Shown here piece after piece: positions 1 to 30,438 of a stretch of DNA of 33,365 bases; position 1 is the stretch's first letter; every line of letters starts with the position of its first letter. Both the position numbers and the translations under genes were made by a program. Where the stretch lies: positions 1 to 33,365 of IMG/VR virus record IMGVR_UViG_2737471753_000001, one strand, 5' to 3'. This stretch comes from a virus (Duplodnaviria; Heunggongvirae; Uroviricota; Caudoviricetes). The notes below the pieces were generated by a model. It saw only the letters and a list, made by a program, of their open reading frames with translations. It searched no databases and was not told where the DNA came from.

Positions 1-249
1 TCACAATGACAGGCTTAGTTGATCCCTTCCGTAGTGAGACGCCGGAAAGGCATCGTGGGGTATGAAGTCAGGCGGTAACGGCGCAATACCTGCGCGCTTT
101 GTGACTTCCCTTTCCACGCTATTAAGCGTGGTAAATGACCGGCTACATTCCAGATTCTGGCACTGGTGATACTGCCTGATTGTCATGTTGGTCATTCTTC
201 GGCTGGTGCGGGTGCGGGCCATAGCGCCGCAGAATGGACATCTGAACAT
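1..249 (-). CDS. ogr: Ogr/Delta-family zinc-finger late transcription activator
   Basis: 82-aa ORF MFRCPFCGA...YHQCQNLECSRSF with a C-x2-C...C-x4-C zinc-finger pattern, closely resembling P2 Ogr as recalled; SD-like GGGGAG upstream of the ATG at 249; stop codon is the first 3 nt of the window. Confidence 0.85.
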   Translation of the reverse strand: MFRCPFCGAMARTRTSRRMTNMTIRQYHQCQNLECSRSFTTLNSVEREVTKRAGIAPLPPDFIPHDAFPASHYGRDQLSLSL

Positions 250-287
250 AATGATGACTCCCCGTGAGAGTTGAACTCCATTTCATT

Positions 288-1397
288 TTATTCAGTTTCC
301 GCTATCCAGTCAGGAATTTTTGCTTCAAGCTCAAGCTGCGTGGTAAAACCGCTGTTATCAATGGTGTGCTCGGCCTTTGCAATAATCCAGTCCTGATTGT
401 CGATGTCATTTTTGAAGCCTGTCACCGTGCCATGCATTTCAGGGTAGAGTTCTGCACGTCCACGCGCCAGCGTGATGGAGAATGATGCGGCTCCGCGTTG
501 TAGCTGCTGCCACTTTGCCGCTGCTGCGCGTCTTGCTGCCTGCTCGTTCTGATAAGTTTTGCGTAACACAAACACATTGCCTTCCGCGCCTTCCATATAA
601 TCACCTTCACGGCTGCTGCTTTTCTCCTTTTTGGGTTTTGGCGGTTTGCGGCGTTTCACGCTGACTTTTTTCTTTTTCCCGTAATTAAGATCAAGCCAGT
701 AAGCGCGTACCCCCGTATACGCTTCGCGGTCAGCAATGCGGAACTGATGGCGATCGCCGCTGCTGCGTGTGATGGCGAACGATGGCAACGGCTGGCCCTG
801 TGCGTTCACGCCACCGCCGGGCATGATGAATAACAGATTACCGCTTTTTACCGTGGTGATTGCGCCCAGCATTTCCGCCATGCGCGTAAGGAAGGACATG
901 TCGCTTTCTTCAGTCTGGTCGGCGTGGTCGATTTCGATATCCATCAGCATTTCGCTGATTTGCGGTTTCAGGCCGTACCGATGAGCGATGGCGGATACCA
1001 CACGCTCAACGGTCACATCATGCCATGACACCTCACGTTTAACGTTAAATTCATCCCGAAAATCTGCGCTTCTGGCTGAAACAGTCAGCCTGTCCGGCGG
1101 TCCTTCGTGAGCGATTTCATCAACAATGTAAGTGCCTTTTTCTGTCAGCGGTTCTCCTTTCCAGCCAATGAGAACCGTCAGGCGCGCGCCCCGTGGCGGT
1201 AGCTGCAACTGACCATCCGCATCATCCAGCGTGATGGTGAGCTGGTCCGCCTCAAATCCCCGGTTGTCGGTCAGTGACAGGCTCATCAGGCGCTCTGCCA
1301 CGCCTGACAGCGTTTTACCCTCCGCGAGAATATCAAAATCCGGCATTTTCACGGGGTCTGTGCCCTGACTGAGCAATTGCATGGTGGTGTCGGTCAT
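288..1397 (-). CDS. D: tail protein D (late control gene D family)
   Basis: Track ORF 288..1418 (376 aa) matches P2 gpD in size and sequence character; start placed at the internal ATG at 1397 (MTDTTMQLL...) because it is preceded by a strong SD (AGGGAGGGAAAG) whereas the ATG at 1418 is not. Confidence 0.85.
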   Translation of the reverse strand: MTDTTMQLLSQGTDPVKMPDFDILAEGKTLSGVAERLMSLSLTDNRGFEADQLTITLDDADGQLQLPPRGARLTVLIGWKGEPLTEKGTYIVDEIAHEGPPDRLTVSARSADFRDEFNVKREVSWHDVTVERVVSAIAHRYGLKPQISEMLMDIEIDHADQTEESDMSFLTRMAEMLGAITTVKSGNLLFIMPGGGVNAQGQPLPSFAITRSSGDRHQFRIADREAYTGVRAYWLDLNYGKKKKVSVKRRKPPKPKKEKSSSREGDYMEGAEGNVFVLRKTYQNEQAARRAAAAKWQQLQRGAASFSITLARGRAELYPEMHGTVTGFKNDIDNQDWIIAKAEHTIDNSGFTTQLELEAKIPDWIAETE

Positions 1398-1453
1398 CTT
1401 TCCCTCCCTGTGCGGCATGGTCGCATGTGCGTGCGGAGGGGGTTACTGCTTTT

Positions 1454-1477
1454 TGTTGTCGCCGGGTCGGGAGAACG
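1454..1477. promoter_or_regulatory. candidate Ogr-type late-activator binding site (TGTTGT-N12-AGAACG) in the D/FI divergent region
   Basis: TGTTGTcgccgggtcgggAGAACG about 80-100 bp upstream of the FI ATG; the same TGTTGT-N12-AGAAC architecture recurs at 20463..20486 between O and P; resembles the P2 late-promoter TGT-N12-ACA dyad as recalled (one mismatch, TGT-N12-AGA). Confidence 0.4.
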
Positions 1478-1553
1478 GCGCAGGGGTGAGATTACGCGCG
1501 TGGTGGGTGATGATTGTTGCCGAATCATTTAACGGATACAAGGGGCTGAAGCT

Positions 1554-2738
1554 ATGAGTGAAACTCGTTTTCATGGTGCCCGTGTTACGGAAAATACCGA
1601 CCTGGTAACAGCGATTAACGATGTTGATTCCAGCGTTATCGGTATCGTGGCAACGGCGGATGATGCGGACGCGAAGCTGTTCCCGCTGAACAAGCCCACA
1701 CTGCTGACCCGCGTCAATGACGTGCTGGGAAAATGCGGAACAACGGGGACGCTTTATCGTGCGCTTAAGGCCATCGCAGACCAGGTGAGCACAAAGGTGA
1801 TCGTCGTTCGCGTGGCTGAACACAAAGAAGAAGACGGAAAGACGCAGGATCAACTGGTTATCGGTGGTTCTGAGGATGACGGCAGCTATACGGGGATGTA
1901 TGCGCTGCTTGTTGCAGAGCAGGATGAAAGCATCGGATACCGTCCGCGTATTCTGGCCGCGCCGGAGCTGGACACGGAGGCGGTAACAAAATCCCTGTGC
2001 GTGATTGCGGGTAAACTGCGCGCGTTTGTGTATGCCACATGTCATGGTTGTAACACGATGGCTGAGGCGATTACCTACCGCCAGAAATTCAACGAACGTG
2101 AGGTGATGCTCTTATGGCCTGACTTCATCGCCTACAACCCGAAAAGTGGCAAAAACGAAACGTTCCCCGCGCCTGCTTATGCGTGCGGCCTTCGTGCGTA
2201 CATTGACCATGAGCAGGGCTGGCACAAATCGCTGTCCAACGTTCCGGTTAAAAATGTGCTGGGAATGTCCAGGCATGTGTTCTGGTCGTTGCAGGCCGAA
2301 GACAGTGATGCCAACAGCCTCAATAACAAAGAAATCACGACCATTATTCGTCGCAACGGGTTCCGCTTCTGGGGCAACCGCACACCGGAAACGAACGCCT
2401 ACATCTTTGAGGTGTATACCCGAACCGCACAGGTGCTGGCTGATTCAATTGCGGAAGCGCAGTTTGAAACCATCGACAGTCCACTGACGCCTGCGAACGT
2501 GAAGGATGTTATCAGTGCCATCAGGGCAAAACTGGATTCGCTGGTTACTGCCGGGAAACTGATTGGTGCGGAGTGCTGGTATGACGTGGTGGATAACGGC
2601 ACCACGAATTTACGTCAGGGACGTGTGCGTATTCGCTACAAATATACGCCCGTTCCGCCACTGGAAGACATGGAGCTTTACCAGACGTTTACTGATGAAT
2701 TCTTTGGTCCCGCATTTGCGGTGCTGGGAGGTGCCTGA
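1554..2738 (+). CDS. FI: contractile tail sheath protein
   Basis: 394-aa ORF with RBS AAGGGG at 1540..1545; sequence and size match P2 gpFI (recalled as 396 aa), e.g. conserved ...GWHKSLSNV...GFRFWGNRT...YTPVPPLE... Confidence 0.92.
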   Translation: MSETRFHGARVTENTDLVTAINDVDSSVIGIVATADDADAKLFPLNKPTLLTRVNDVLGKCGTTGTLYRALKAIADQVSTKVIVVRVAEHKEEDGKTQDQLVIGGSEDDGSYTGMYALLVAEQDESIGYRPRILAAPELDTEAVTKSLCVIAGKLRAFVYATCHGCNTMAEAITYRQKFNEREVMLLWPDFIAYNPKSGKNETFPAPAYACGLRAYIDHEQGWHKSLSNVPVKNVLGMSRHVFWSLQAEDSDANSLNNKEITTIIRRNGFRFWGNRTPETNAYIFEVYTRTAQVLADSIAEAQFETIDSPLTPANVKDVISAIRAKLDSLVTAGKLIGAECWYDVVDNGTTNLRQGRVRIRYKYTPVPPLEDMELYQTFTDEFFGPAFAVLGGA

Positions 2739-3250
2739 TGGCTGTACCAAAACATCTTCGCTTTTTTACGTTGTTTGTGGATGGTGAAAACGAAGTGGGT
2801 AAAGTGACATCCGTCACGCCGCCCAAACTGACGCGCAAAACCGACAGCTATCGTGGTGGTGGCATGATGGGGGCGGTAAGTATTGATCTCGGTCTGGACG
2901 ACTCCGCGCTTGATGCGAGTTTTGTTATGGGGGGAGCTGTTCGTGCGCTGTTCCTTAAATATGGCGGCACGATTGACGGCACGCTGCTGCGTTTTGCGGG
3001 TGAATACTACACCGATGCAGAAAGCGATCTGTATGAAATCGAGATGCGCGGACGTGTGACGGAAATTGATATGGGGGAAGCCAAACAGGGCGAAGCCACA
3101 TCACACACTTACGCTGTCAAAAACACCTACTACAAGCTGAGCGTTAACGATCGCCCGCTGTGGGAAATCGACCTGTTGAACCACATCTACCGGAAGGACG
3201 GCAAGGACATTGTGCCTGACCGTATCCGTTCCGCGCTTGGGCTTGGCTGA
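2738..3250 (+). CDS. FII: tail tube protein
   Basis: 170-aa ORF whose ATG overlaps the FI stop (ATGA-type coupling); size and sequence fit P2 gpFII. Confidence 0.9.
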   Translation: MAVPKHLRFFTLFVDGENEVGKVTSVTPPKLTRKTDSYRGGGMMGAVSIDLGLDDSALDASFVMGGAVRALFLKYGGTIDGTLLRFAGEYYTDAESDLYEIEMRGRVTEIDMGEAKQGEATSHTYAVKNTYYKLSVNDRPLWEIDLLNHIYRKDGKDIVPDRIRSALGLG

Positions 3251-3305
3251 TAAGTAATATGCAGGCGGCGCAGTGCGTCGCCTCTGACTGAAAAGGAGAC
3301 AACTG

Positions 3306-3680
3306 ATGAAAGACATCGATACTGAAACCCGGAATAACACCGTGGCGGATGATGTGACGGCAGGTGAGGATATGGCTGTCGAACGTGGCGTAAAACTGAC
3401 CCGACCAATTGAGCGTGGTGGCGAAAAAATCACGTATGTGGAGATCACCGGGGCTATTGAACAGGCTGGATCCCTGCGTGGTCTGTCGCTGTCTGATGTG
3501 CTGAATCTGAAAGCGGATACCATGTTCACGCTGTTGCCTCGCGTGACCTCGCCACGACTGGATGAAGTGATGATTAAAAAAATGTCGTCACGCGATTTTA
3601 TTCAGTTGTGCGCTGTGGCTGTAAATTTTATGAGCGAGCCAGACTCTGGCGCGAAGAGCGTGCAGGAGACGGCGGCGTAA
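3306..3680 (+). CDS. E: tail assembly chaperone E (tape-measure chaperone)
   Basis: 124-aa ORF directly upstream of the tape-measure gene with a long overlapping -1 frame ORF, as in the P2 E/E' arrangement. Confidence 0.8.
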   Translation: MKDIDTETRNNTVADDVTAGEDMAVERGVKLTRPIERGGEKITYVEITGAIEQAGSLRGLSLSDVLNLKADTMFTLLPRVTSPRLDEVMIKKMSSRDFIQLCAVAVNFMSEPDSGAKSVQETAA

Positions 3681-3844
3681 TCACCCTGGTGTGCTTTGAT
3701 CACATCGAAGATCTGGTGGCAGATATCGCCGCCATTTTTAACTGGTCGCCCGCCGAAATCTTCATGATGACGCCCGGCGAAGTGGTTAGCTGGCGTGAGC
3801 GGGCGGCACTTCGCAGCGGGAATGCAGACAATGAAGACTCTTGA
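3306..3844 (+). CDS. E+E' fusion chaperone produced by a predicted programmed -1 ribosomal frameshift
   Basis: The -1 frame is open from 3578 to 3844 and overlaps the T start; an X_XXY_YYZ slippery heptamer A_AAT_TTT lies in the E frame at 3623..3629. Mirrors the conserved chaperone frameshift upstream of tape-measure genes. Confidence 0.5.
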
Positions 3845-6638
3845 TATCCGGGTCGCTTTCAGCGCCGTTGACAGGCTGACCCGACCTGCCGAAAACGCCC
3901 GCCGCCTGATGGGGCAGTTTGGTGACTCCATCCAGCGAACGCAGGGGGCGATCAAAAATCTCGAGCGTCAGGCGCGATCATTTGAGCGCGCCCGCGACGC
4001 TGTCAGTAAAGCGGATGCGGGCATCGTGAAAGCACGACGCCAGCTTAACGCCCTTAATCAGTTACAACGCACGGGTACAGTGCTCAGCGAAAAACAACAA
4101 AAGCTGATGCAGCAGTTAAGCACCCGGCTTGAACGCCTGAATGAATCGCGTACACGGGAAATTCAGAAAATGCGGGAGCTTGGCGGAGAGCTGAAACGCC
4201 ACGGCATTTCCCTGACAGGCAGCGATAACACCATCCAGCAGGCCATCAGACGCACCGAACAGTACAACAACCAGCTTGAACGCGAACGGCAGGCGCTTGC
4301 GCGTGTAACGCGGGCGCGTGAGCGGTATTCGCGCGCGCAGGAAACAGCGGGAAAACTGAAAACAGGTGGTGCGCTGGCAATTGGTGCGGCAGCGGCGGGC
4401 GGCTATGCTGCCGGGCGTTTTTTGCAGCCTGCGATCGGGTTCGGGAAAGAGATGTCCCGCGTTCAGGCGCTGACGCGAATCGACCAGAACAGCCCACAGT
4501 TTAAGGCGCTGCGTGAGCAGGCGTTAAAACTTGGCTCTGAAACGCAGTTCACCGCTGGAGATGCCGCCAGTGGACAGGCATTTCTTGCAATGGCTGGCTT
4601 CACACCACAGGCCATTCAGGCTGCGCTTCCCGGTGTGCTGAGCATGGCAACGGCTGGCGGTATGGATCTCGGCGAGACGGCGGATATTGGCTCAAACATC
4701 CTGACGCAGTTCGGCCTTTCTGCCGACCAGATGGACCGGGTCGGTGACACGCTCACCGCAGCGTTTACCCGTACCAACACTGACCTTCGCGCACTGGGCG
4801 AAACCATGAAATATGCAGGTCCGGTGGCGGGCAAGCTGGGAATATCGCTGGAGCAGGCCGCAGCGATGGCGGGCGTGCTGGCGAATATGGGTATCAGGGG
4901 AAGTGATGCCGGGACGGCAATGCGTGCCAGCCTGGCTCGTCTGGCATCACCGCCAAAGGCGGCAGCAGAGGCGCTGAAAGAGCTTGGTGTGGCAGTCTCT
5001 GACGCGAACGGCAAAATGCGCCCGATGGAGGATGTGCTGGCCGATCTTTATAAAGCCACCCGCAAATACGGGGAAGTTGACCGGGTATCGTTCTTTAAGG
5101 ACATTGCCGGAGAAGAGGCTTTCACATCGTTTATGGCGCTCGTTGATGCAGCGGGTGACGGTTCCTTACCTAAACTGAGAAAAGAACTTGAAGGCGCACG
5201 CGGTGAGGCTGAACGCACAGCAAAGGTTATGGCCAACAACCTTGATGGCGATCTGAAATCACTCGGCAGTGCATGGGAAGGGTTGCGCATCCGCATTGCA
5301 GATCTGATTGACGGTCCGCTGCGTTCTGTCACGCAGTGGCTCACGCGGGTGGTATCAAGGGTGACGGCGCTGGCGCAGGCCCATCCGGCACTGACGCGCC
5401 AGCTACTGATAGCAGGCGGTGCGTTGCTGGCAATGACTGCAACGATTGGCTCGTTGTCGCTGGTTATTGGCGTGCTTCACGGGAAACTGGCCACGTTACG
5501 TCTTGGTTTTTCTCTCCTGACCGGATCAATGAATGTCGTCAGGGTGCTGCCAGCACTATGGGGAATGGTAACAGGTTCCATCTCGTTGCTGGGTGGCGCT
5601 ATCGGGGCGCTGTTCAGTCCGGTCGGATTGATTGTTGCCGCGTTTGTGGCTGCGGCGGTTCTCATCTGGAAATACTGGGAACCCATCAAGGCGTTTTATG
5701 CCGGGGTGTTCAGTGGGATTATGGAACGGCTGGCTCCGTTGCGCGAAACCTTTGAACGGTTTGGTCCTGTTTTTGATGTCGTGCGCGATGGGATTATTCA
5801 GCTCTTTAACTGGTTTAAATCGCTGCTGTCACCGATGGAGTCCAGCAAGGAAACGCTGGATAAATGCACCAGTGCTGGCGAGATATTCGGTAACGTTCTT
5901 GGTGGCGCGCTACAGCTTGTTCTGACGCCTGCAAAAATGCTGCTGGATACGCTGGCGTGGATACTTGAAAAACTCGGTGTGCTTCCGGATGAAGCGGAAA
6001 GGGCGAGAAAGAAAATCGAAGACGCACAGCGTGCGGCCATTCTTCAGGACAAGGTTGCCTTGCTTCAGGGGGACCTGGCGAAAATCAATCCGCCGAAGCC
6101 TGTAGAAAATGGCAATGGCACCGGAGGTGATAACCCCAAAGACAATAAACCGCTCACAGACAGCAATACTGGTACGCTGCGCAGACTCAGCAAAATTGCT
6201 GATAACACAGGTAAGCTGGTTGATGAGACGAAAAAACGCATTGGCCCCGGCGATATTGTCTTTAAGAACCTGCCCCGCGCACTTGCTGTTCGTGGGGAGT
6301 GGCAGGAGCGGAAGATTGCGCAGGTCAGTAAGCCTGCCCCCGCAATTAATATCACACCCGTGGTCCCGGCTCCGCTGCCTCCGGCGCTGGTCCCTGTTGT
6401 TGCGGCCAGCTCCCGCCCGGTGGCGGAGGCCATACGATCTCCAGTGGCATCAGTTCCTGTAACTTCCCGTAACCGGGAGCCTGTTGCCTCAGGATTTGGC
6501 GGTGAAATTCATGTTCATCTGCATAACGTCGTTACACAGAATCCCCGCGAACTGGCGAAACTGGTCGGTGAAATGGTCAGGGCAGAAATGGAACGGCGCG
6601 CCCGTGCCGGGCGTGGCAGTTTTTACGATAAAGATTGA
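3831..6638 (+). CDS. T: tail tape measure protein
   Basis: Long ORF (track 3795..6638, 947 aa) with coiled-coil-like N-terminal half, Gly/Ala-rich hydrophobic segments and a long C-terminal region; start placed at ATG 3831 (MKTLDIR...) with GGGA about 10 nt upstream; ATG 3822 is an alternative. Confidence 0.9.
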   Translation: MKTLDIRVAFSAVDRLTRPAENARRLMGQFGDSIQRTQGAIKNLERQARSFERARDAVSKADAGIVKARRQLNALNQLQRTGTVLSEKQQKLMQQLSTRLERLNESRTREIQKMRELGGELKRHGISLTGSDNTIQQAIRRTEQYNNQLERERQALARVTRARERYSRAQETAGKLKTGGALAIGAAAAGGYAAGRFLQPAIGFGKEMSRVQALTRIDQNSPQFKALREQALKLGSETQFTAGDAASGQAFLAMAGFTPQAIQAALPGVLSMATAGGMDLGETADIGSNILTQFGLSADQMDRVGDTLTAAFTRTNTDLRALGETMKYAGPVAGKLGISLEQAAAMAGVLANMGIRGSDAGTAMRASLARLASPPKAAAEALKELGVAVSDANGKMRPMEDVLADLYKATRKYGEVDRVSFFKDIAGEEAFTSFMALVDAAGDGSLPKLRKELEGARGEAERTAKVMANNLDGDLKSLGSAWEGLRIRIADLIDGPLRSVTQWLTRVVSRVTALAQAHPALTRQLLIAGGALLAMTATIGSLSLVIGVLHGKLATLRLGFSLLTGSMNVVRVLPALWGMVTGSISLLGGAIGALFSPVGLIVAAFVAAAVLIWKYWEPIKAFYAGVFSGIMERLAPLRETFERFGPVFDVVRDGIIQLFNWFKSLLSPMESSKETLDKCTSAGEIFGNVLGGALQLVLTPAKMLLDTLAWILEKLGVLPDEAERARKKIEDAQRAAILQDKVALLQGDLAKINPPKPVENGNGTGGDNPKDNKPLTDSNTGTLRRLSKIADNTGKLVDETKKRIGPGDIVFKNLPRALAVRGEWQERKIAQVSKPAPAINITPVVPAPLPPALVPVVAASSRPVAEAIRSPVASVPVTSRNREPVASGFGGEIHVHLHNVVTQNPRELAKLVGEMVRAEMERRARAGRGSFYDKD

Positions 6639-6650
6639 GGAGTCATGGCT

Positions 6651-7139
6651 ATGATGATGATCTACGGCATGTTTGTTTTTGAGCTGCGCACGCTGCCGCA
6701 TCAGCAGTTACAGCAAAACAAAAGCTGGCGGCATGTGAAAAATGAACGCGTTAACCGTTCAGCAAGCTGGCAGTATATCGGTGCAGGTGATGATCGCATC
6801 GTTCTTTCTGGTGTGCTTTATCCTGAAATTACAGGTGGCGAAGTGTCGCTGTCGCTGCTGACCACGCAGGCGTATACAGGACGACCCTGGCCTTTGATTG
6901 ATGGCGTCGGGCAGATTTACGGCATGTATGTCCTGACCGGAACGAATACGACCCGTTCCGAGTTTGATCGCTACGGTAAGGCGAAAAAGATAGAATTTTC
7001 ACTGACCCTTGAACGCTGTGATGAGGATTTGCGGGAGCGCCTGCAATCCTCATCGTTCAGTGATATGCTGTCCGGCTTCAAAGATAAGGTGACATCATCT
7101 CTTAACAGCGCGGCCAGTTCAGTTAAAGGGCTGTTCTGA
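6651..7139 (+). CDS. U: tail protein U
   Basis: Track ORF 6645..7139 (164 aa) resembles P2 gpU; SD GAGGAG at 6636..6641 is best spaced for the ATG at 6651 (MMMIYGMFVF...). Confidence 0.85.
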   Translation: MMMIYGMFVFELRTLPHQQLQQNKSWRHVKNERVNRSASWQYIGAGDDRIVLSGVLYPEITGGEVSLSLLTTQAYTGRPWPLIDGVGQIYGMYVLTGTNTTRSEFDRYGKAKKIEFSLTLERCDEDLRERLQSSSFSDMLSGFKDKVTSSLNSAASSVKGLF

Positions 7140-7150
7140 TTTAACACAAA

Positions 7151-7186
7151 AACCGCTAATGGTCAGATTAGCGGTTATTTTGTTTT
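7151..7186. terminator. bidirectional intrinsic terminator between convergent U and invertase genes
   Basis: Perfect 10-bp stem AACCGCTAAT / ATTAGCGGTT with 6-nt loop GGTCAG, preceded by an A-run and followed by ATTTTGTTTT. Confidence 0.75.
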
Positions 7187-7762
7187 CTGACTCTTCTCTA
7201 TTGTTCCGCTTGATTCTCCTGCGGGGTGGTAACGATAAATCGTCGATGTACCAATGCCGTAAATTATTGCCAGTTGTTTTCTGTCGTGACCGTTTTTAAT
7301 CAGCCTTGCTATTTGCTCATGCTGTTCTTTTGTCAGCTTCGGTCGACGTCCGCCTGTGCGCCCCCGTGCGCGCGCTGCCGCCAGTCCGGCCAGTGTACGT
7401 TCAACAATTAATTCACGTTCCATTTCAGCCAGGGCACCCATCACGTGGAAGAAAAAACGCCCCATTGGAGAAGATGTATCTATGCTGTCGGTCAGACTGC
7501 GAAAATTAATCCCTCGCTCCCGTAGTTCTCCGACGAGAGAAATCAGATGTTTCATGCTTCGCCCAAGGCGATCCAGTTTCCAGACAACCAGCGTGTCACC
7601 TTTTTGAAGCCGCTTTAAAGCGCGTTTTAATCCCGGTCGGTCTGTCTTTGTCCCGCTTAATTTATCTTCAAATATTTGTTCACATCCTGCACAAACAAGA
7701 GCGTTTCGTTGCAGGTCTGTATTCTGGTCATTTGTTGATACCCTTACATAACCAATCAGCAC
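7175..7762 (-). CDS. pin: serine recombinase, DNA invertase of the Pin/Gin/Hin/Cin family
   Basis: N-terminus LIGYVRVSTNDQNTDLQRNAL... (catalytic Ser region), resolvase core ...WKLDRLGRS...SPMGRFFFHVMGALAEMERELI... and a C-terminal HTH; start placed at the GTG giving (M)LIGYVRV, as in Gin/Pin; track ORF extends to a TTG at 7780. Confidence 0.9.
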   Translation of the reverse strand: MLIGYVRVSTNDQNTDLQRNALVCAGCEQIFEDKLSGTKTDRPGLKRALKRLQKGDTLVVWKLDRLGRSMKHLISLVGELRERGINFRSLTDSIDTSSPMGRFFFHVMGALAEMERELIVERTLAGLAAARARGRTGGRRPKLTKEQHEQIARLIKNGHDRKQLAIIYGIGTSTIYRYHPAGESSGTIEKSQKTK

Positions 7763-7816
7763 ACTGAATCTCCCGTCCAAAAGCGCAAATCATGCCATGC
7801 AGGCCGGAAACGGCCA

Positions 7817-7842
7817 TTATCTAAAACCTCGGTTTACAGGAA
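7817..7842. other. left inversion crossover site (gix/hix-like, 26 bp)
   Basis: TTATCTAAAACCTCGGTTTACAGGAA; inverted-repeat partner of 10847..10872; a 24-bp perfect inverted repeat CCTCGGTTTACAGGAAACGGTAAA spans 7827..7850 and 10839..10862; matches the Gin/Hin crossover-site pattern as recalled. Confidence 0.85.
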
Positions 7843-8784
7843 ACGGTAAATCAGGCTTCTGGCGCATTACAGAAAAACCAGAACGGCGCAGATATTCCGG
7901 GGAAAGATACCTTCACCAAAATATTGGGGCCTGCCGCGCATATAGCGCATGGCTGAATATTGGTGGCGATAGTCAGGTCTGGACAACCGCACAATTCATT
8001 TCGTGGCTGGAGAGTCAGGGGCATTTAACCATCCTTACTGGATGTGCAAAGGCTCATGGCTTATGCAAATAATAAGGTCATTACAGATACAGGTTGCGGA
8101 AATATTTGTCTTGCAGGTGCTGTGGTGGAAGTTATTGGCACCCGCGGCGCAATGACCATACGCGTTACCACGCCGAGCACGTCCAGCGGTGGCGGAATCA
8201 CTAACGCTCAATTCACTTATATTAATCATGGTGATGCTTACGCTCCTGGCTGGCGACGAGACTACAACACGAAAAACCAGCAGCCTGCATTTGCTTTAGG
8301 GCAAACAGGACGCAGGGTCGCAAATGATAAAGCTGTTGGCTGGAACTGGAATAGCGGCGTTTATGATGCAGATATCAGTGGCGCATCGACATTAATCCTC
8401 CACTTTAATATGAATGCGGGGAGTTGCCCTGCTGTACAGTTCCGCGTGAATTACAGAAATGGCGGTATCTTTTATCGTTCAGCGCGTGATGGTTATGGCT
8501 TTGAAGCTAACTGGTCAGAGTTTTACACCACAACACGCAAACCCTCTGCGGGAGATGTTGGTGCATATACGCAGGCAGAATGTAACTCAAGTTTATTACA
8601 GGTATTCGCCTTGGCGGTCTGTCATCTGTTCAGACATGGAATGGTCCTGGCTGGTCTGACAGGTCAGGTTATGTCGTTACTGGTTCAGTTAACGGAAACC
8701 GTGATGAATTAATTGATACAACTCAGGCAAGGCCAATTCAGTATTGCATTAATGGAACGTGGTATAACGCGGGAGTATTTAATT
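7843..8784 (+). pseudogene. alternative tail-fibre C-terminal (receptor-binding) cassette, currently not fused to H, apparently interrupted by frameshifts
   Basis: Reading out from the left crossover site in the H frame gives fibre-like sequence that stops after about 42 codons; the protein-like reading continues through three further frames (track ORFs 7797..8072, 8044..8712, then a frame ending ...[17 protein letters not shown]...), with shifts at A- and G-runs. Confidence 0.45.
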
Positions 8785-9234
8785 ATGATGCACTTAAAAA
8801 ATATTACTGCTGGCAACCCTAAAACAAAAGAGCAATACCAGCTAACAAAGCAATTTAACATCAAATGGCTTTATTCAGATGATGGAAAAAACTGGTATGA
8901 GGAACAAAAGAATTTCCAGCCAGACACTTTGAAAATGGTCTATGACCATAACGGCGTTATTATTTGTATTGAAAAGGATGTTTCAGCAATTAATCCGGAA
9001 GGCGCAAGCGTCGTTGAATTACCTGATATTACAGCAAATCGCCGGGCTGATATTTCGGGTAAATGGATGTTCAAAGATGGCGTAGTGATAAAGCGAACTT
9101 ATACCGAGGAGGAACAGAGGCAGCAGGCAGAGAATGAAAAGCAAAGCCTGTTGCAACTTGTCAGGGATAAAACCCAGCTATGGGACTCACAGCTACGGCT
9201 GGGTATCATTTCCGACGAGAATAAACAAAATTAA
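8785..9234 (+). CDS. tail fibre assembly protein (Tfa; Mu U / P2 G family), plus-strand copy
   Basis: [22 protein letters not shown]...[41 protein letters not shown]...; RBS GGGA upstream of ATG 8785. The conserved Tfa C-terminus (...[28 protein letters not shown]) continues in another frame to about 9316, implying a 1-nt shift near 9225. Confidence 0.7.
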
Positions 9235-9328
9235 CCGAGTGGATGCTCTATGCGCAGAAGGTCGAATCCACAGACACCTCCAGCCTGCCAGTAACGTTTC
9301 CAGAACAACCAGAATGAAACAAGGCCCG

Positions 9329-9850
9329 CTATCGGGCCTTAATTTTATTCAGGCTTTTGTGGCCATTCAGGATTTGCCGTATCCACACGGCTGACCAGAA
9401 CACTATAGCGTTCCATGACTCCAGTCGTGCGCGTTCCTCATCCGTCGCCATATTCAGCCTGACAGCGCGTTCCAGTGGCTGAATAACGTTTTCTGCTTCG
9501 GAAAGTAACGCGGCCTTTTGTGATTCGGCCTGTTGTTGTTGCTCGTCTGCCGTATAAATCCGTTTAACCACAGCTCCGTCCTTAAACATCCACTTACCGG
9601 AATCATCAGCACGACGATTAGCTGTAATATCAGGAACCTCAACGACGCTATAACCTTCAGGGTTAAGCGTGGAGCATCTTTGTGATGGCGACAATAATAT
9701 TATTTGCATCGTAAACAATCTTTATGTGTCTGGCTGAAAGTTTTTCACTTCCTCATACCAGTTTTTTCCGTCTTCGGACCATAACCAGATAACATCAAAT
9801 TCTTTGTTAGCTGATATTGTTCTTTTGTTTTGGATTTCCAGACTTAATAT
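9329..9850 (-). pseudogene. P2 G-like tail fibre assembly gene remnant (minus-strand copy) with N-terminal frameshifts
   Basis: Intact C-terminal part in track ORF 9329..9718 (...[34 protein letters not shown]...); N-terminal part [13 protein letters not shown]... is readable only by switching frame at least three times. Confidence 0.55.
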
Positions 9851-10846
9851 TTTTTAAATGCTGCATAAATTACACCTGTGCGACGTTATACCATGTGCCA
9901 TTGATGTATTTTTGTATTGGTCTGAATACTGCCGGATCATCGCCATCAACTTCACCGACAATGCCAAGCCCGTAATTGCATGACCTGATTTCTCATACAT
10001 CACGCCTTTTTGCATAGTCTGAACAACACGTGTGCCAAGTCGGACATCTCTCACATAACGTGAATCAAATTGCCATAGTTGCCGGGAATAACTTGCGAGC
10101 CGCAAAGCCAGTTCCCGTTATTATCCATGTACGCCTGACCATCGGTACCATTGGCTGTCCTTGAGTTATTAATCATGTAGATGCCAAATTGCTTATTCCC
10201 CAGTCCACCAATCATAAATTTGCGATCAGCGTGGTCCTGACGAAGTAATGCCTGCGCACCATCGGTGGATACCGCATTGCGTCCCCAAATAACATTCTGG
10301 TCACGCATATGAATCCACATGCCGGTACTACTGTTAATTGCAAAACGGTTTGCAATATATCCCTGTAACATCAAGACCATGCCCATGCTTATCCGACCAG
10401 TTCTAAGGTTAATCGTAAAGGGGCGTAATGGCCCTATATCACCATTTTCTCCCTCATTCTCTCGTGTAGGGATGATATGCAGGCATTCTTCAGAACGGCG
10501 AAAAATGGCACCAAAAGATGAATTAAATATCCTCAGTGCATTGACTGTCGATATTTTTACTTCACTGCTGAAAAGGCTTTAACAAGACAGACAAAGCATC
10601 CCATTTAAGATTCATCAGGTCTTTTGTTGTGGTGCTTTGTTTGCTTCTCCATTTGAAATATTCATTGCCGTTGTCGCCTGTTTCAAACCACATGTATGAA
10701 TCAGTATCGCTATCGGCATCATTTTAAAACCAATCTTTGCCCAGTCAGTATTTCGAATCCAGGCAAGGATTGAGTCGTTTTCAAATTAAGCCCACCGGAC
10801 AAGGTATCGCCATTTTTTTGCACGGCGTACCAGCCCTGTTTACCGT
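9851..10846 (-). pseudogene. P2 H-like tail-fibre C-terminal cassette (currently joined to H) degraded by frameshifts and stops
   Basis: Fibre-like sequence is scattered over three frames (GNAVQKNGDTLSGGL..., ENDSILAWIRNTDWAKIGFK..., ...FDSRYVRDVRLGTRVVQ..., ...GEVDGDD..RPIQKYINGTWYNVAQV*), with a stretch around 10390..10560 closed in all frames. In the current orientation H terminates 21 codons past the crossover site. Confidence 0.5.
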
Positions 10847-13912: not shown

Positions 13913-14490
13913 TGCGGGCCTCCTGTCGAATCGCTGCCGCCTTTCACGCCACCGTGTTTATGCGTATGCACTGTGATGCCGTTTGAGGTGAAGTTGCCGC
14001 CGCTGTGCGTGATATTGCCGCTCATCTTTCCTCCTTTTGTGACGTCAAGCGTCGCCGTTCTCAGAAGGTTTGTGCATTCCACGACGGGCGTATCCAGTTT
14101 CACGCTGACGGATGCCTGTAAAGTGGCCGTTTTCATGCCGCTGGCGCTCAGTGCGCCTGCGTCCGCGTCGTAGCGGAACACCGCGCCATCCGGCGCGCTG
14201 ACCACGATTTCTTTCAGGCTTTTGCCGGGTGCCGGACTGGCATCACTCCACAGGCTGCCAATTATCATGGCGGTTTCCGGGTTGCCGCCAATGCAGGCAA
14301 TTACCACCTGTTCGCCTGGTGATGGCGGCAGCCACACATTGAAGGCTCCCGCGCGCGTGGTGTTCCAGCGCAACCATCCTGTTTCCAGTTCGCCGCTGCG
14401 AACGCGCACGCGCCAGGACTTCTCATCAATTTCAGAGATGATCCCGGTGCGGATGATATTGCTCAGCAGTCGCATGAGTTCTGCGCTCAC
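13909..14490 (-). CDS. V: baseplate spike/hub protein V
   Basis: 193-aa ORF, ...IIRTGII...GEQVVIA..GG......LHTHKHGG... resembling P2 gpV; start overlaps the S stop. Confidence 0.85.
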   Translation of the reverse strand: MSAELMRLLSNIIRTGIISEIDEKSWRVRVRSGELETGWLRWNTTRAGAFNVWLPPSPGEQVVIACIGGNPETAMIIGSLWSDASPAPGKSLKEIVVSAPDGAVFRYDADAGALSASGMKTATLQASVSVKLDTPVVECTNLLRTATLDVTKGGKMSGNITHSGGNFTSNGITVHTHKHGGVKGGSDSTGGPQ

Positions 14491-15859: not shown

Positions 15860-16127
15860 CTTTTGCAATATCGTTGCGTAGCTGTTCACGTCTGGCCTCT
15901 CCGTCCTGATTTCGCTGTTGATTTTCCACGCGGAGTTGCGCCAGCACCTGCTGCATATCCTGTACCCCGGCGCTGATGATATTCAGGGTGTCGGCGGTAC
16001 GTTTCAGGGCGCTGGCCTGCGCTTCGTTTCTGGCGTTCTCCCGGCCCAGCGACCACGACAGACGCATGGATGTTCCCCATGCGGCAATCAGAAGGAAAGC
16101 GACGCCCAGCGTGGGCCAGAGCTTCAT
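15720..16127 (-). CDS. lysB: i-spanin (Rz-like inner-membrane spanin)
   Basis: Start placed at MKLWPTLGVAFLLIAAWG (N-terminal TMD) overlapping the endolysin stop; coiled-coil-like periplasmic region; o-spanin embedded in the +1 frame. Confidence 0.7.
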   Translation of the reverse strand: MKLWPTLGVAFLLIAAWGTSMRLSWSLGRENARNEAQASALKRTADTLNIISAGVQDMQQVLAQLRVENQQRNQDGEARREQLRNDIAKDECAHALPDARFTDRLRRHAERATASAVSPAYTADADHTGNASPLP

Positions 16128-16516
16128 GCCGGATAAACTCCGTGTGGTAACTGAAAATGCGGTCCGTCTTTCAGGGTCTTCCAGTCGCCGCCCCATTCCA
16201 CCGGAATATTCAGTTCCCGGCTGGCCTGTCTGAATGCTGCTGCGATTTTTTCGTACAGCGGCCATTCCCATGACACCTGGCTGCCGATATAAGCCACAAC
16301 ATCCACGGCATGCCCCGTAAGGTGGCGACTGTTCATGGTCTGGCTCTTACCCGTGGCCACAAGTTGCTTCTGGCGGTAACGGCTGCGCAACCCTTCGGTG
16401 ATACCAAAATCCACTTCCGAGATTTCCAGTGCCCGTCGGGTCACTTTCACCAGATCAGGATTTACGCCCTGCAAATTCTTTTCGCTCCGGCTGCTGAATT
16501 TAAATGTGTTGCTCAT
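16124..16516 (-). CDS. endolysin, peptidase M15 family (L-alanyl-D-glutamate peptidase type)
   Basis: 130-aa ORF with zinc-ligand pattern ...SRHLTGHAVDV...DGPHFQLPH typical of VanY/M15 endolysins; sits between holin and spanins. Confidence 0.7.
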   Translation of the reverse strand: MSNTFKFSSRSEKNLQGVNPDLVKVTRRALEISEVDFGITEGLRSRYRQKQLVATGKSQTMNSRHLTGHAVDVVAYIGSQVSWEWPLYEKIAAAFRQASRELNIPVEWGGDWKTLKDGPHFQLPHGVYPA

Positions 16517-17547: not shown

Positions 17548-17620
17548 AAAAAAATCGGGCGGTGGGTGCGCGGTGTAAACGGTCACGGAGTCAAACCGGA
17601 ACACCGCGCACGCCGCCCGC
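17548..17620 (-). terminator. candidate intrinsic terminator/attenuator between M and L
   Basis: On the minus strand a GC-rich imperfect long stem (GGGCGGCGTGCGCGGTG ... CACCGCGCACCCACCGCCC) is followed by a T7 run and then the L RBS and ATG. Confidence 0.4.
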
Positions 17621-17635
17621 TGACGGGGTCAGTCG

Positions 17636-19556: not shown

Positions 19557-20393
19557 TCAGAAGTCAGCCAGCTGGTCGGAGGCTGCGCCCGTTGCGGTGA
19601 AGCGGTTCTGCGGATCGCCGTCCTGCGTGCGCAGTTTTTCCTTCAGTGCTGTCAGCTCTGTGGTCAGTGACGTGATTTTCTGGCGGTCCTGCTGATGGCG
19701 GGTTTCCAGCACATTAAAACGGTCGATAATGTCGGCCTGTGACGTTGCGACGCCTTCCACCGCTTCCTGAATACGGGAGAAACTGGCGTCATCCGCTTTG
19801 CGGCCACGACCAATAATCCCCATTACGCGGTTAAACCACTGGGTGCCTTCTTCCTGGCGTTGTTCTGCCATTTCGATGATTTCAGACTCGATGGCTTCGG
19901 AAATGAGCGGTGCTTCACCCTGGACACTGTTGAACGTCATCACCGCCTGACGTTGCTGTGCCGTGAATTTCAGGCGCTCAGTGCCCAGGCTTGCCGGGGT
20001 GTCGGTCATCGCCAGCCCGACCAGATAGGCGCGCCCGTTAACGGAGAACTGCGGGTGCAGTTCGATACTGGAATAGATTTTCTTGCCGTCCGCGACAAGC
20101 TGCTTCATGCGCTCGGTCGGTTCGATTTCTGCATACAGCGCAGTACGTCCGGCCAGCGGACCTTCCGTAATGTCTTCCGTACTCAGTGCGGTGACATCGC
20201 CCATTGCGGAAAATTCGCTTGACGGGCATGGCGAGAGATAGTGCTCAACGTTCACGCGGGCAGCGTAAACATCCGGGTTGAAGTTCTCGGCGGCTTCACG
20301 CAGATGCACCGGACTGATTTCACGGCCATCAACAGTTGATCCGGAGACAGCCACGCGAAACTTTTTGCGGGATGTCTTTTTTTCATTAGCCAT
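19557..20393 (-). CDS. O: capsid scaffolding protein (protease domain family)
   Basis: Track ORF 19557..20426; start placed at MANEKKTSRKKF (SD GAGGGG upstream); resembles P2 gpO. Confidence 0.85.
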   Translation of the reverse strand: MANEKKTSRKKFRVAVSGSTVDGREISPVHLREAAENFNPDVYAARVNVEHYLSPCPSSEFSAMGDVTALSTEDITEGPLAGRTALYAEIEPTERMKQLVADGKKIYSSIELHPQFSVNGRAYLVGLAMTDTPASLGTERLKFTAQQRQAVMTFNSVQGEAPLISEAIESEIIEMAEQRQEEGTQWFNRVMGIIGRGRKADDASFSRIQEAVEGVATSQADIIDRFNVLETRHQQDRQKITSLTTELTALKEKLRTQDGDPQNRFTATGAASDQLADF

Positions 20394-20462
20394 AGTTTTT
20401 GCCCCTCTGACTGGTTCTTCAGTCATGATGGCAAAGCGTAACAGGCTGATACAAAGGGCTTT

Positions 20463-20486
20463 TGTTGTAAGAAAACGGCCAGAACA
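20463..20486. promoter_or_regulatory. candidate Ogr-type late-activator site (TGTTGT-N12-AGAACA) between divergent O and P
   Basis: TGTTGTaagaaaacggccAGAACA, same architecture as 1454..1477; centred roughly 55 bp from plausible start points for both flanking operons. Confidence 0.4.
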
Positions 20487-20547
20487 GGGGGTTAAGGAGA
20501 ACGGTTTCGCGCGCGGGTAATCTTCCTGTAATTACTCAGGGGGAGCA

Positions 20548-23345: not shown

Positions 23346-23770
23346 CGCGCTTCGCTTGTCTGCTGCTTCGCCGGGGCATAAAAAATTTATGCCCCGACTC
23401 TCCAGCTCCTGTATCAGTCAGATAATTTCACGACGCTTTCCTGCTGATTGCCATCATCGACAGTCAGACTCTTACGCAATCCCACCGCGTTGACTGCATG
23501 TTCTCGCCGTCTCAGTGCGATTTTGACGGCCTTACCTTTCACCCCATCAAATCAAAAGCTCTCACGTCTTTTTCACGCTCAGCGTGAGAAATACAGCCAT
23601 TCTGTTGTATCTCTGCGACATCGTTCAGGGAATGCTATTTACCCCCTGAAACGCGGGCTGTTCCCCCGTCACCTGCGCGCAGAAAAAACGCGTTTTTTTG
23701 TGCACGCACGGATCCCTGACGGATCCAGCCGCCACGCGGGCCGGAAGGGCAAAAAGTCGTTCAAAAAAAT

Positions 23771-28936: not shown

Positions 28937-29253
28937 TGCTGCCCCTCCGCCTTTCGGCTACACCGATCGATTACTTGGTACTGAATTTCTAAACCCAGCT
29001 TTTCAGCAAGCGCGTGCTCTGCCTTAGCTCCCGCAGACTGCTGCCAGCCATCCAGCAAGAAGATCCCGTCAGCACAACGCAACATGGCGAAGCAAATATC
29101 CATGTATTCCGCCTGCTCTAATCCGTCCGGCAAAATCGCCGGATTAAGGGCAACGTTTCCGCGTCGCACTACGTGCCCAGCTGCACGGTTAAAAGCCTGC
29201 CGATTGAATCCAGGCAAACCGCTCATCGGGCCAGCGATATAGATTTTTGCCAT
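28933..29253 (-). CDS. DUF4406-like (nucleoside 2-deoxyribosyltransferase-like fold) protein
   Basis: 106-aa ORF MAKIYIAGPMSGLPGFN...; coupled (overlapping start/stop) to the Dam and C5-MTase genes. Confidence 0.5.
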   Translation of the reverse strand: MAKIYIAGPMSGLPGFNRQAFNRAAGHVVRRGNVALNPAILPDGLEQAEYMDICFAMLRCADGIFLLDGWQQSAGAKAEHALAEKLGLEIQYQVIDRCSRKAEGQQ

Positions 29254-30224
29254 TAAAAAGCCTCCAGATCGCCAAACGTGCCCGCCGCAACCATCGCGTT
29301 GTAAGTCGCATCACCCATCACGGCGCCACAATCAGGGCAACCGCCGCCGTAACGCCCGCAGCAGTCGCAGACAGGCAGCACGCCGATCACTTCTTTGGCC
29401 TTCTGTCGGTTGTTTTTGTCAGTGCTGACGGAACGTTGCACGCTGATTTTGTGCATCTTGAAGGGCTGATAAATCGCGCGGGTGGCTTCGGTGTCGCTGT
29501 TGGAAATGACGACCTTCACGCCATGCTTACGGTTAACTTCCAGCAGTGCCTGGACTAACTGGCGGTGGTTGTCTTCCGTGAATGGTTCGGTGTGGTATTG
29601 GGTAAAATCGGCTGTTTTGCTTTCAGGCAGGTAAGGCGGATCGCAGTAAACGAGAACATCGCCACCCGTGACGACCTGTAGAGAACGCTGGAACGGCGCG
29701 CACAGAAATATTGCCTTTGTATCGTTGGCCTTTTCGGCAAACAGGCGGATTTCATTTTCAGGAAAGTAGACGCTCTTATACTTGCCAAACGGCACGTTAA
29801 AGCCAGTCTTCCGGCTGTATCGGCATAAGCCGTTATAACCGTGGCGATTCAGATACAGGAATTGAGCAGCGCGCATAATGCACGCCATTTCAGCGCCATA
29901 ACGCAACCCACCGCTTTTGACCGTACCCACCTGCTTATTGAACGCGGCGCGGACTTCGTTGTATCCCTGCGGGCTGTTCTTACTGTTGAACAGTTCACGG
30001 GCCGCATCGATCACTAAGTCCGGGTAACGGGTGACTTCCCGATACAGGTTAATAAGATCCGGGTTGATATCAGCCAGCACATAGCGGCGGTATTCAGTCG
30101 CCAGAAATACCGATGCGCCGCCTACGAACGGTTCGATCAGGCAGTCGGCTTTAGGAAGATGCGGCAGCAGGTCAGGGAGGACACGGGTTTTTCCCCCTGC
30201 CCATTTGATGAACGGGCGGATCAT
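29253..30224 (-). CDS. dam: DNA adenine methyltransferase (Dam-like, N6A) with Cys-rich C-terminal extension
   Basis: Start placed at MIRPFIKWAGGK (SD GGAG upstream); DPPY motif (...VYCDPPYLPE...); C-terminal tail ...PVCDCCGRYGGGCPDCG... resembles a zinc ribbon. Confidence 0.8.
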   Translation of the reverse strand: MIRPFIKWAGGKTRVLPDLLPHLPKADCLIEPFVGGASVFLATEYRRYVLADINPDLINLYREVTRYPDLVIDAARELFNSKNSPQGYNEVRAAFNKQVGTVKSGGLRYGAEMACIMRAAQFLYLNRHGYNGLCRYSRKTGFNVPFGKYKSVYFPENEIRLFAEKANDTKAIFLCAPFQRSLQVVTGGDVLVYCDPPYLPESKTADFTQYHTEPFTEDNHRQLVQALLEVNRKHGVKVVISNSDTEATRAIYQPFKMHKISVQRSVSTDKNNRQKAKEVIGVLPVCDCCGRYGGGCPDCGAVMGDATYNAMVAAGTFGDLEAF

Positions 30225-30225
30225 T

Positions 30226-30438
30226 TTACAGGACTCCGTAATGGGAAGCTGGAATAGAAGGGCGCTGCAATTCTTCAATGCAGTGCTGGCGCAGATTGCT
30301 TATAAAATTGGTTGCTACAGACCCACTGGCAGAAAGGGTTAACTCACCATCACGGCGGGTTTTAATGGTTAACCCTTCATTTTCGATAGCAGGTAAAAGA
30401 ACATGCAAAATGAAACTATATTGTTCACGTCTGGTCAT
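30226..30438 (-). CDS. hypothetical protein
   Basis: 70-aa ORF (MTRREQYSFILHVLLPAIENEGL...) with SD GGAGGAAG; ends 2 nt before the Dam start. Confidence 0.45.
   Translation of the reverse strand: MTRREQYSFILHVLLPAIENEGLTIKTRRDGELTLSASGSVATNFISNLRQHCIEELQRPSIPASHYGVL

Follow-up and report, generated by a model that had tools for sequence, protein, structure and literature searches.

In phage P2 (NC_001895), the divergent late promoters pO and pP share one annotated activator site (3057..3087), with transcript starts at 3016 on the minus strand for the P operon and at 3127 on the plus strand for the O operon. The core of this site consists of TGT at 3063-65 and CCA at 3078-80, with a centre at 3071.5 that lies 55.5 bp from each start, and the two -10 elements, TAGCCT (T-7 at 3023) and GAAACT (T-7 at 3120), are 97 bp apart and each 48.5 bp from that centre. 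The V promoter (PV) has the form TGTTGT-N12-CAA with the -10 element CAATCT, again 48.5 bp from the centre. The F promoter (PF; activator site 17555..17583, start at 17626-17628) carries the dyad GGTTGT-N12-CCAACC and the -10 element GAAAAT, 49.5 bp from its centre; it is one-directional and drives FI-FII-E-E'-T-U-D, with D as the last gene and ogr reached by read-through of this 6.4-kb operon. Thus, the P2 annotation and the mapped PP/PO starts establish that one Ogr site can serve two divergent late promoters. A link between Ogr and RNA polymerase's alpha subunit is provided by the ogr suppressors of rpoA109 that are cited in PMC11434276.

In Stenotrophomonas phage Smp131, late promoters were predicted from sites with the consensus TGT-N12-ACA, and two of them, PP' and PO', have identical coordinates on opposite strands (PMC3931495). 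Smp131 is P2-like with rearranged tail genes, as is the DNA described here, but its JIHG genes are split from the V...D genes, and a shared site between D and FI was not proposed for it. The papers on phages P88 and phiSM do not discuss promoters.

The DNA analysed here (the window) is the whole 33.4-kb stretch of positions 1 to 33,365. By its sequence it is a P2-type Escherichia coli prophage and belongs to the P88 group (the genus Xuanwuvirus in the family Peduoviridae). Citrobacter phage Shae_phiSM, Xuanwuvirus P884B11, and Escherichia phage P88 share 96 to 98.6% identity with bases 292-3300; E. coli KA0011 shares 99.9% identity with bases 1-1600; and of 5426 complete E. coli genomes, 1397 (about a quarter) carry the D-FI region. 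The gene map was derived from open reading frame (ORF) lists and Pfam matches:

249..1, minus strand: ogr, late activator (Ogr/Delta zinc finger; PF04606 Ogr_Delta, E = 3.4e-17)
288..1397, minus strand: D, tail baseplate hub (Phage_GPD; PF05954, E = 1.4e-17)
1554..2738, plus strand: FI, tail sheath, first gene of the FI-FII-E-T-U operon (Phage_sheath_1 and related Pfam families, ORF map)
2738..3250, plus strand: FII, tube
between FII and T, plus strand: E
3795..6638, plus strand: T, tape-measure
6645..7139, plus strand: U, at whose end the operon ends
7175..7780, minus strand: serine invertase (Resolvase and HTH_7)
after the invertase up to O, minus strand: tail-fibre, baseplate, lysis, and head genes
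from 20548, plus strand: P and Q

The gene order of P2 is FI-FII-E-T-U-D-ogr on one strand, whereas in the window the block from FI to U is inverted and D-ogr is left alone. The ogr gene is directly downstream of D, with a gap of 38 bp, and ogr homologues adjoin D in all relatives examined. Its match to Ogr_Delta scores 62.5 bits against a cut-off of 26.3, so that the element encodes a cognate activator. The D protein is 98% identical to D of P88 and Shae_phiSM. DNA similarity to the P88-type phages begins at about 288-295, at the D stop codon, and the window Ogr shares 90% identity with the Ogr of Enterobacter phage phiT5282H but only 44% with that of P88; to judge from these identities, the ogr allele of the window (1..295) is a mosaic replacement. 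As a separate observation, the serine invertase adjoins tail-fibre and assembly ORFs on both strands (7797..10386), which points to a host-range segment, situated between the inverted F operon and the tail-fibre gene, that can be inverted.

The divergent genes D (ATG at 1397, minus strand) and FI (ATG at 1554, plus strand) are separated by 156 bp, within which the following elements were recognized; the promoter of ogr is included for comparison:

1454..1477, either strand: predicted Ogr-type activator box TGTTGT-N12-AGAACG (from sequence, recurrence, and conservation)
1509..1514, plus strand: predicted FI promoter (PF) -10 element GATGAT, 48.5 bp from the dyad centre, with a conserved A-N3-T
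1486..1491, plus strand: weak -35-like GTGAGA, 17 bp upstream of the FI -10 element, with conserved positions and a presumed promoter role
1417..1422, minus strand: predicted D promoter (PD) -10 element GACCAT, 48.5 bp from the dyad centre, with the mirror A-N3-T
285..313, minus strand: sigma-70-like ogr promoter CTGACT-17 bp-TAAAAT, overlapping the D stop codon (promoter scan)

The box, found exactly where a preliminary description of this DNA had placed it, consists of TGTTGT (1454-1459), a 12-base spacer cgccgggtcggg (1460-1471), and AGAACG (1472-1477), with a core of TGT (1457-1459) and AGA (1472-1474) centred at 1465.5. Its halves are nearly reverse-complementary, as had been stated, since GTTGT agrees with GTTCT (the reverse complement of AGAAC) at four of five positions, and the gap contains no other strong dyad, the next candidate scoring 9 compared with 13.5. 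The starts of D, with a strong ribosome-binding site (GGGAGGGA) upstream of the ATG at 1397-1395 on the minus strand, and of FI at 1554 likewise stand as described. Two details need adjustment. (i) The distance of about 55 bp given in the preliminary description applies to the predicted transcript starts (about 1410 for D and 1521 for FI) but not to the start codons, which lie 68.5 bp (D) and 88.5 bp (FI) from the dyad centre. (ii) The dyad is centred between the two genes only in part, being displaced by 10 bp from the gap midpoint toward D.

The comparison with the P2 late promoters proposed in the same description shows the same register (TGTTGT, 12 bases, xxA) as the annotated P2 activator sites, at a -10 distance of 48.5 to 49.5 bp at PF, PV, PO, and PP; with an Ogr_Delta gene 1.2 kb away, this agrees with the proposed Ogr-type box. 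The geometry is identical to that of the mapped P2 promoters. As in PP/PO, one TGTTGT-N12-xxA dyad lies between divergent late operons, and the T(-7) positions of the two predicted -10 elements (1417 and 1514) are 97 bp apart and symmetric about 1465.5, so that a single strong dyad is equidistant from both predicted promoters. Also as in PP/PO, the -35 regions are poor, GC-rich spacers lie beside the -10 elements, and the genome carries its own gene for an Ogr-family activator. The differences are that the window box would serve D(-ogr) and FI...U while the P2 site serves P-Q and O...S, that its right half-site is AGAAC and not CCATC, and that the starts are mapped in P2 and predicted in the window. 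Relative to P2 PF, which shares the register and drives the same FI-led tail operon as the predicted window PF, the window box is predicted to act in both directions.

A promoter scan of 1398..1553 found no consensus sigma-70 promoter, as expected for activator-dependent promoters; an upstream dyad, -10 elements with poor -35 regions, and an encoded Ogr/Delta activator are together the features of a P2-type late promoter. Several points speak against a shared Ogr box. The -10 hexamers are weak (GACCAT matches three and GATGAT four of six consensus positions); the right half of the core is AGA and not ACA, so that the box has five of the six core positions of TGT-N12-ACA; and the predicted D leader, which contains the ribosome-binding site, is only about 13 nucleotides (nt) long, the FI leader being about 33 nt.

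Considering the evidence below, we estimate a probability of roughly 0.78 that the dyad at 1454..1477 is one Ogr site serving back-to-back, activator-dependent late promoters, PF and PD. By this account, which is built on sequence comparison, Ogr would first be made from its own sigma-70-like promoter at 313..285 (minus strand), which is followed by a ribosome-binding site, GGGGAG, and by the ogr ATG at 249; an ogr promoter is likewise annotated at the corresponding position of P2. We infer that Ogr would then bind the dyad about 55 bp upstream of both starts and, by analogy with P2, recruit RNA polymerase from about -55 through the alpha C-terminal domain. Because the dyad is symmetric in its placement, Ogr could act on polymerase on either side. 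Rightward, PF (-10 element at 1509-1514) would start at about 1521 and express FI-FII-E-T-U, including sheath, tube, tape-measure, and U; leftward, PD (-10 element at 1422-1417) would start at about 1410 and express D and probably ogr. Given a D-ogr gap of only 38 bp, the leftward transcript probably makes more Ogr, a positive feedback in which D and ogr would form a short operon and Ogr could reinforce its own synthesis. Thus ogr, which P2 reaches through its 6.4-kb operon, could be reached in the window through a 1.1-kb D transcript. The inversion of the FI-U block would have cut D from the F operon and created a second shared box of the PP/PO type, and PD would give D late expression in the lineage that carries the inverted block. 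The D/FI shared box is a new example and not a new mechanism, the P2 P/O site being the precedent.

The separation of D from the F operon, assumed in the preliminary description, was confirmed in a genome scan that used one genome per bacterial species and D-protein alignment and returned 80 loci. FI is divergent from D at every scanned locus at which D is at least 61% identical to that of the window, and the P2 order U-D occurs at every scanned locus at which D is at most 54% identical. This split by gene order indicates that the FI|D arrangement defines a large and old clade. Among the hosts of the divergent loci are Salmonella, Edwardsiella, Serratia, Erwinia, Pantoea, Klebsiella, Xenorhabdus, Photorhabdus, Providencia, Morganella, Yersinia, Hafnia, and others, so that the clade with FI|D-ogr spans many genera of Enterobacterales.

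In a five-genome alignment covering four genera (the window, P88, Enterobacter phiT5282H, and Klebsiella ST16-OXA48phi5.4 and 3LV2017), the gap has a mean identity of 65%, while TTTTTGTTGT and the A and T of both -10 candidates are invariant. For a broader sample, 34 gap sequences with less than 85% identity were aligned on their best dyad. All scanned loci with the FI|D order have one TGT-N12-A(C/G)A dyad in the gap, and in these nonredundant relatives it is almost invariant. Numbered from the centre, the left half has T-9 in 34/34, G-8 in 32/34 (C in the other two), and T-7 in 34/34 sequences, and the right half has A+7 in 33/34, C (24) or G (10) at +8, and A+9 in 33/34. Most flanking positions show less than 60% consensus, and the most conserved features are the dyad core and two mirror-image -10 signatures. 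These signatures, an A at -11 and a T at -7, were tested in 33 sequences after removal of one that was misaligned. On the FI side, A-N3-T occurs at +45/+49 in 32 of 33 relatives and at any other offset in at most 7; on the D side, the mirror A-N3-T occurs at -45/-49 in 29 of 33 and at any other offset in at most 8. Elsewhere, at offsets 13 to 74, the median for the signature is 0 to 1. Shared ancestry can keep positions conserved among relatives, but the gap as a whole shows low mean conservation. In the -35 region on the FI side, G at +23 (34/34) and T at +22 (27/34) give the consensus gCgtGa, in which conservation is limited to the TGA core. With both predicted -10 elements at 48.5 bp and conserved to this extent, the earlier proposal that one Ogr-type site serves both directions has comparative support.

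The same counts bear on the main rival, namely, that the box activates FI from PF only, that D is expressed from an Ogr-independent promoter or as part of another transcript, and that the D-side hexamer is conserved for other reasons. PF would be the ancestral promoter, moved along with the inverted block; the D-side GACCAT is the weaker and slightly less conserved element (29/33 compared with 32/33); and the D leader would be unusually short. However, the D-side A-N3-T stands at the exact mirror distance and at no other offset, and, at 20 to 25 nt upstream of the ATG, it clears the ribosome-binding site. Neither another upstream promoter candidate for D nor a sigma-70 consensus was found in the gap, and DNA farther upstream on the D strand is antisense to the F operon. 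Since the P2 PP/PO pair, in addition, provides one site with two promoters at the same spacing, we regard activation of FI alone as unlikely.

The half-sites vary symmetrically by lineage, as GTTGT/ACAAC, GTTCT/AGAAC (Providencia), CTTGT/ACAAG (Morganella), and ATTGT/ACAAT, as expected for a site that is read by a symmetric dimeric DNA-binding protein. Symmetry apart, the D/FI box has a counterpart in the window, which comprises the following elements:

20463..20486, either strand: second box TGTTGT-N12-AGAACA, centred at 20474.5 in the 121-bp divergent gap between O and P (pattern search)
20430..20425, minus strand: candidate O -10 element CATCAT, 49.5 bp from the O/P box centre
20518..20523, plus strand: candidate P -10 element TAATCT, 48.5 bp from the O/P box centre

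This O/P box corresponds to the P2 site that is annotated as "activator binding site; pO, pP promoters". The window contains two exact copies of TGTTGT-N12-AGAAC, compared with 0.01 expected from shuffled sequences, and these lie only in divergent late gaps (D/FI and O/P). When TGT or TCT, 12 bases, and ACA or AGA (T[GC]T-N12-A[CG]A) were required together with a -10 element (A at position 2 and T at position 6) at 48.5 ± 1 bp, the window gave five matches, four of which are the D/FI and O/P sites, each in both directions. In the same scan of four related genomes, both sites were matched both ways, and two of the genomes each had one further bidirectional site. The two sites also covary, as in each of four genomes the D/FI and O/P boxes agree in their half-site variant: the window has AGAAC, phiT5282H and ST16-OXA48phi5.4 have AGACC, and 3LV2017 has ACAAC. 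We considered whether the half-site variant tracks Ogr specificity and rejected this idea: the window has AGAAC, the type of the P88 D/FI box, although its Ogr is closer to that of phiT5282H (AGACC). Ogr-family proteins show cross-activation, and half-sites that, outside the core, do not follow the ogr allele fit with this property.

Another reading is that the inverted repeat arose by chance or that the dyad is a site for some other DNA-binding protein, for example, a repressor or nucleoid protein. Generic short patterns lend it some weight, as neither TGT-N12-ACA (3 found compared with 7.5 expected) nor TGT-N12-AGA (6 compared with 10.4) is enriched in the window; the evidence thus lies in the longer motif, its position, and its conservation, short patterns being uninformative alone. 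A weight matrix built from the dyad regions of the relatives ranks the D/FI site at the top with 22.3 bits, while the O/P site scores 13.9, near the shuffle maximum (mean, 12.3; highest, 17.0). Sites at 10680 and 16045 are also near that maximum, and we therefore rejected the matrix as a stand-alone detector: alone, it cannot separate the O/P site from the best shuffled match, and recognition depends on context. Against binding by another protein or chance stand the two exact copies in late divergent gaps, the near-invariance of the dyad across many genera of Enterobacterales, the covariation of the D/FI and O/P sites within each genome, and a register and -10 distance equal to those of the four P2 late promoters for which activator sites are annotated. 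Taken together, these make such a reading highly improbable.

Least credible of all is that the gap encodes a small protein, a structured RNA, or a terminator: a 44-codon ORF (1394..1528, minus strand) is annotated in P88 (SF19_gp50) and as a hypothetical protein in several E. coli RefSeq records, but at seven related loci (L014, L016, L030, L044, L059, L060, and L086) no ORF that begins with ATG crosses the dyad on either strand, the alignment contains insertions and deletions and lacks a codon-like conservation pattern, 1440..1492 folds no better than shuffled sequences (z = -0.41 and -1.80), and no T-run follows the dyad on either strand. We therefore rejected both the small ORF, which is not conserved among related phages, and the hairpin or terminator; the annotated 44-codon ORF probably represents regulatory DNA miscalled as a gene.

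A box shared by PF and PD would explain how late control of D is maintained in P2-like prophages with an inverted tail operon, a very common group, and it provides precise coordinates for two predicted promoters and one predicted activator site. Moreover, the 33 gaps show the requirements of an Ogr box (TGT, 12 bases, A-x-A, and a -10 element ending 48.5 bp away) better than the four P2 promoters alone. A more tentative extension, to which we would give somewhat less than even odds, is that the FI|D-ogr clade expresses its whole late gene set from two shared Ogr boxes, having lost the V promoter and joined O to G in one operon, with a tight positive feedback through D-ogr that sharpens the late switch and, possibly, a third site inside the lysB-like gene. 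The window ORFs that correspond to S and V of the P2 gene order, an assignment by position only, overlap by four bases (14487..14490), leaving no room there for the terminator, orf30, and V promoter of P2. The genes from O to G may thus form one long operon in this clade.

The putative third site, an 18/21 copy of the dyad and spacer, lies on the minus strand at 16034..16054 within the lysB-like (Rz-type) gene (16124..16516). It reads GGTCGCTGGGCCGGGAGAACG where the D/FI box has TGTCGCCGGGTCGGGAGAACG (1457..1477), and no such match was found in 300 shuffles. The copy is also present in Shae_phiSM and is absent from phiT5282H, 3LV2017, and ST16-OXA48phi5.4. No -10-like hexamer lies 48.5 bp downstream of it, and equivalence of this site (centre, 16045.5) to the P2 V promoter was rejected, as ACGTAC, the hexamer at +44..+49, does not resemble a -10 element. 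The copy could be a third Ogr site with a different geometry or a relic of recombination.

Two other exact matches to TGT-N12-ACA lack late-promoter geometry. One is in the gap downstream of Q (23603..23620; TGTTGTATCTCTGCGACA), which was rejected as a late promoter for want of a -10 element at the right distance on either strand. The other (TGTTCTTACTGTTGAACA, at 29975..29992 in the ORF 29253..30278) forms a perfect TGTTC-N8-GAACA palindrome.

A GC-rich block (CGCGCGCG or CAYGCGCGCG) occurs at 1423..1440 and at 20507..20517, directly upstream of the D-side and P-side -10 elements, respectively. The block is weaker on the FI side and is conserved across genera (relatives in loci L004-L063), and P2 PP has a similar sequence, cgcggggcgcg.

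The ATG at 20426, which opens the longest O ORF and is the start chosen in the Shae_phiSM annotation, overlaps the predicted -10 element of the O promoter and lies upstream of the predicted O transcript start (about 20418). Judging from the sequence context, the true O start is likely the in-frame ATG at 20393, which is preceded by GAGGGG; the Pfam GPO match starts at residue 10 of this shorter form.

Finally, in the Shae_phiSM record (L002; OR565851.1), the product names of at least two genes within 2294..4745 look misassigned. The D homologue is labeled as an ogr/Delta zinc finger protein and the sheath gene as a late control gene D protein, while the real ogr homologue, at 2003..2251, carries no annotation.
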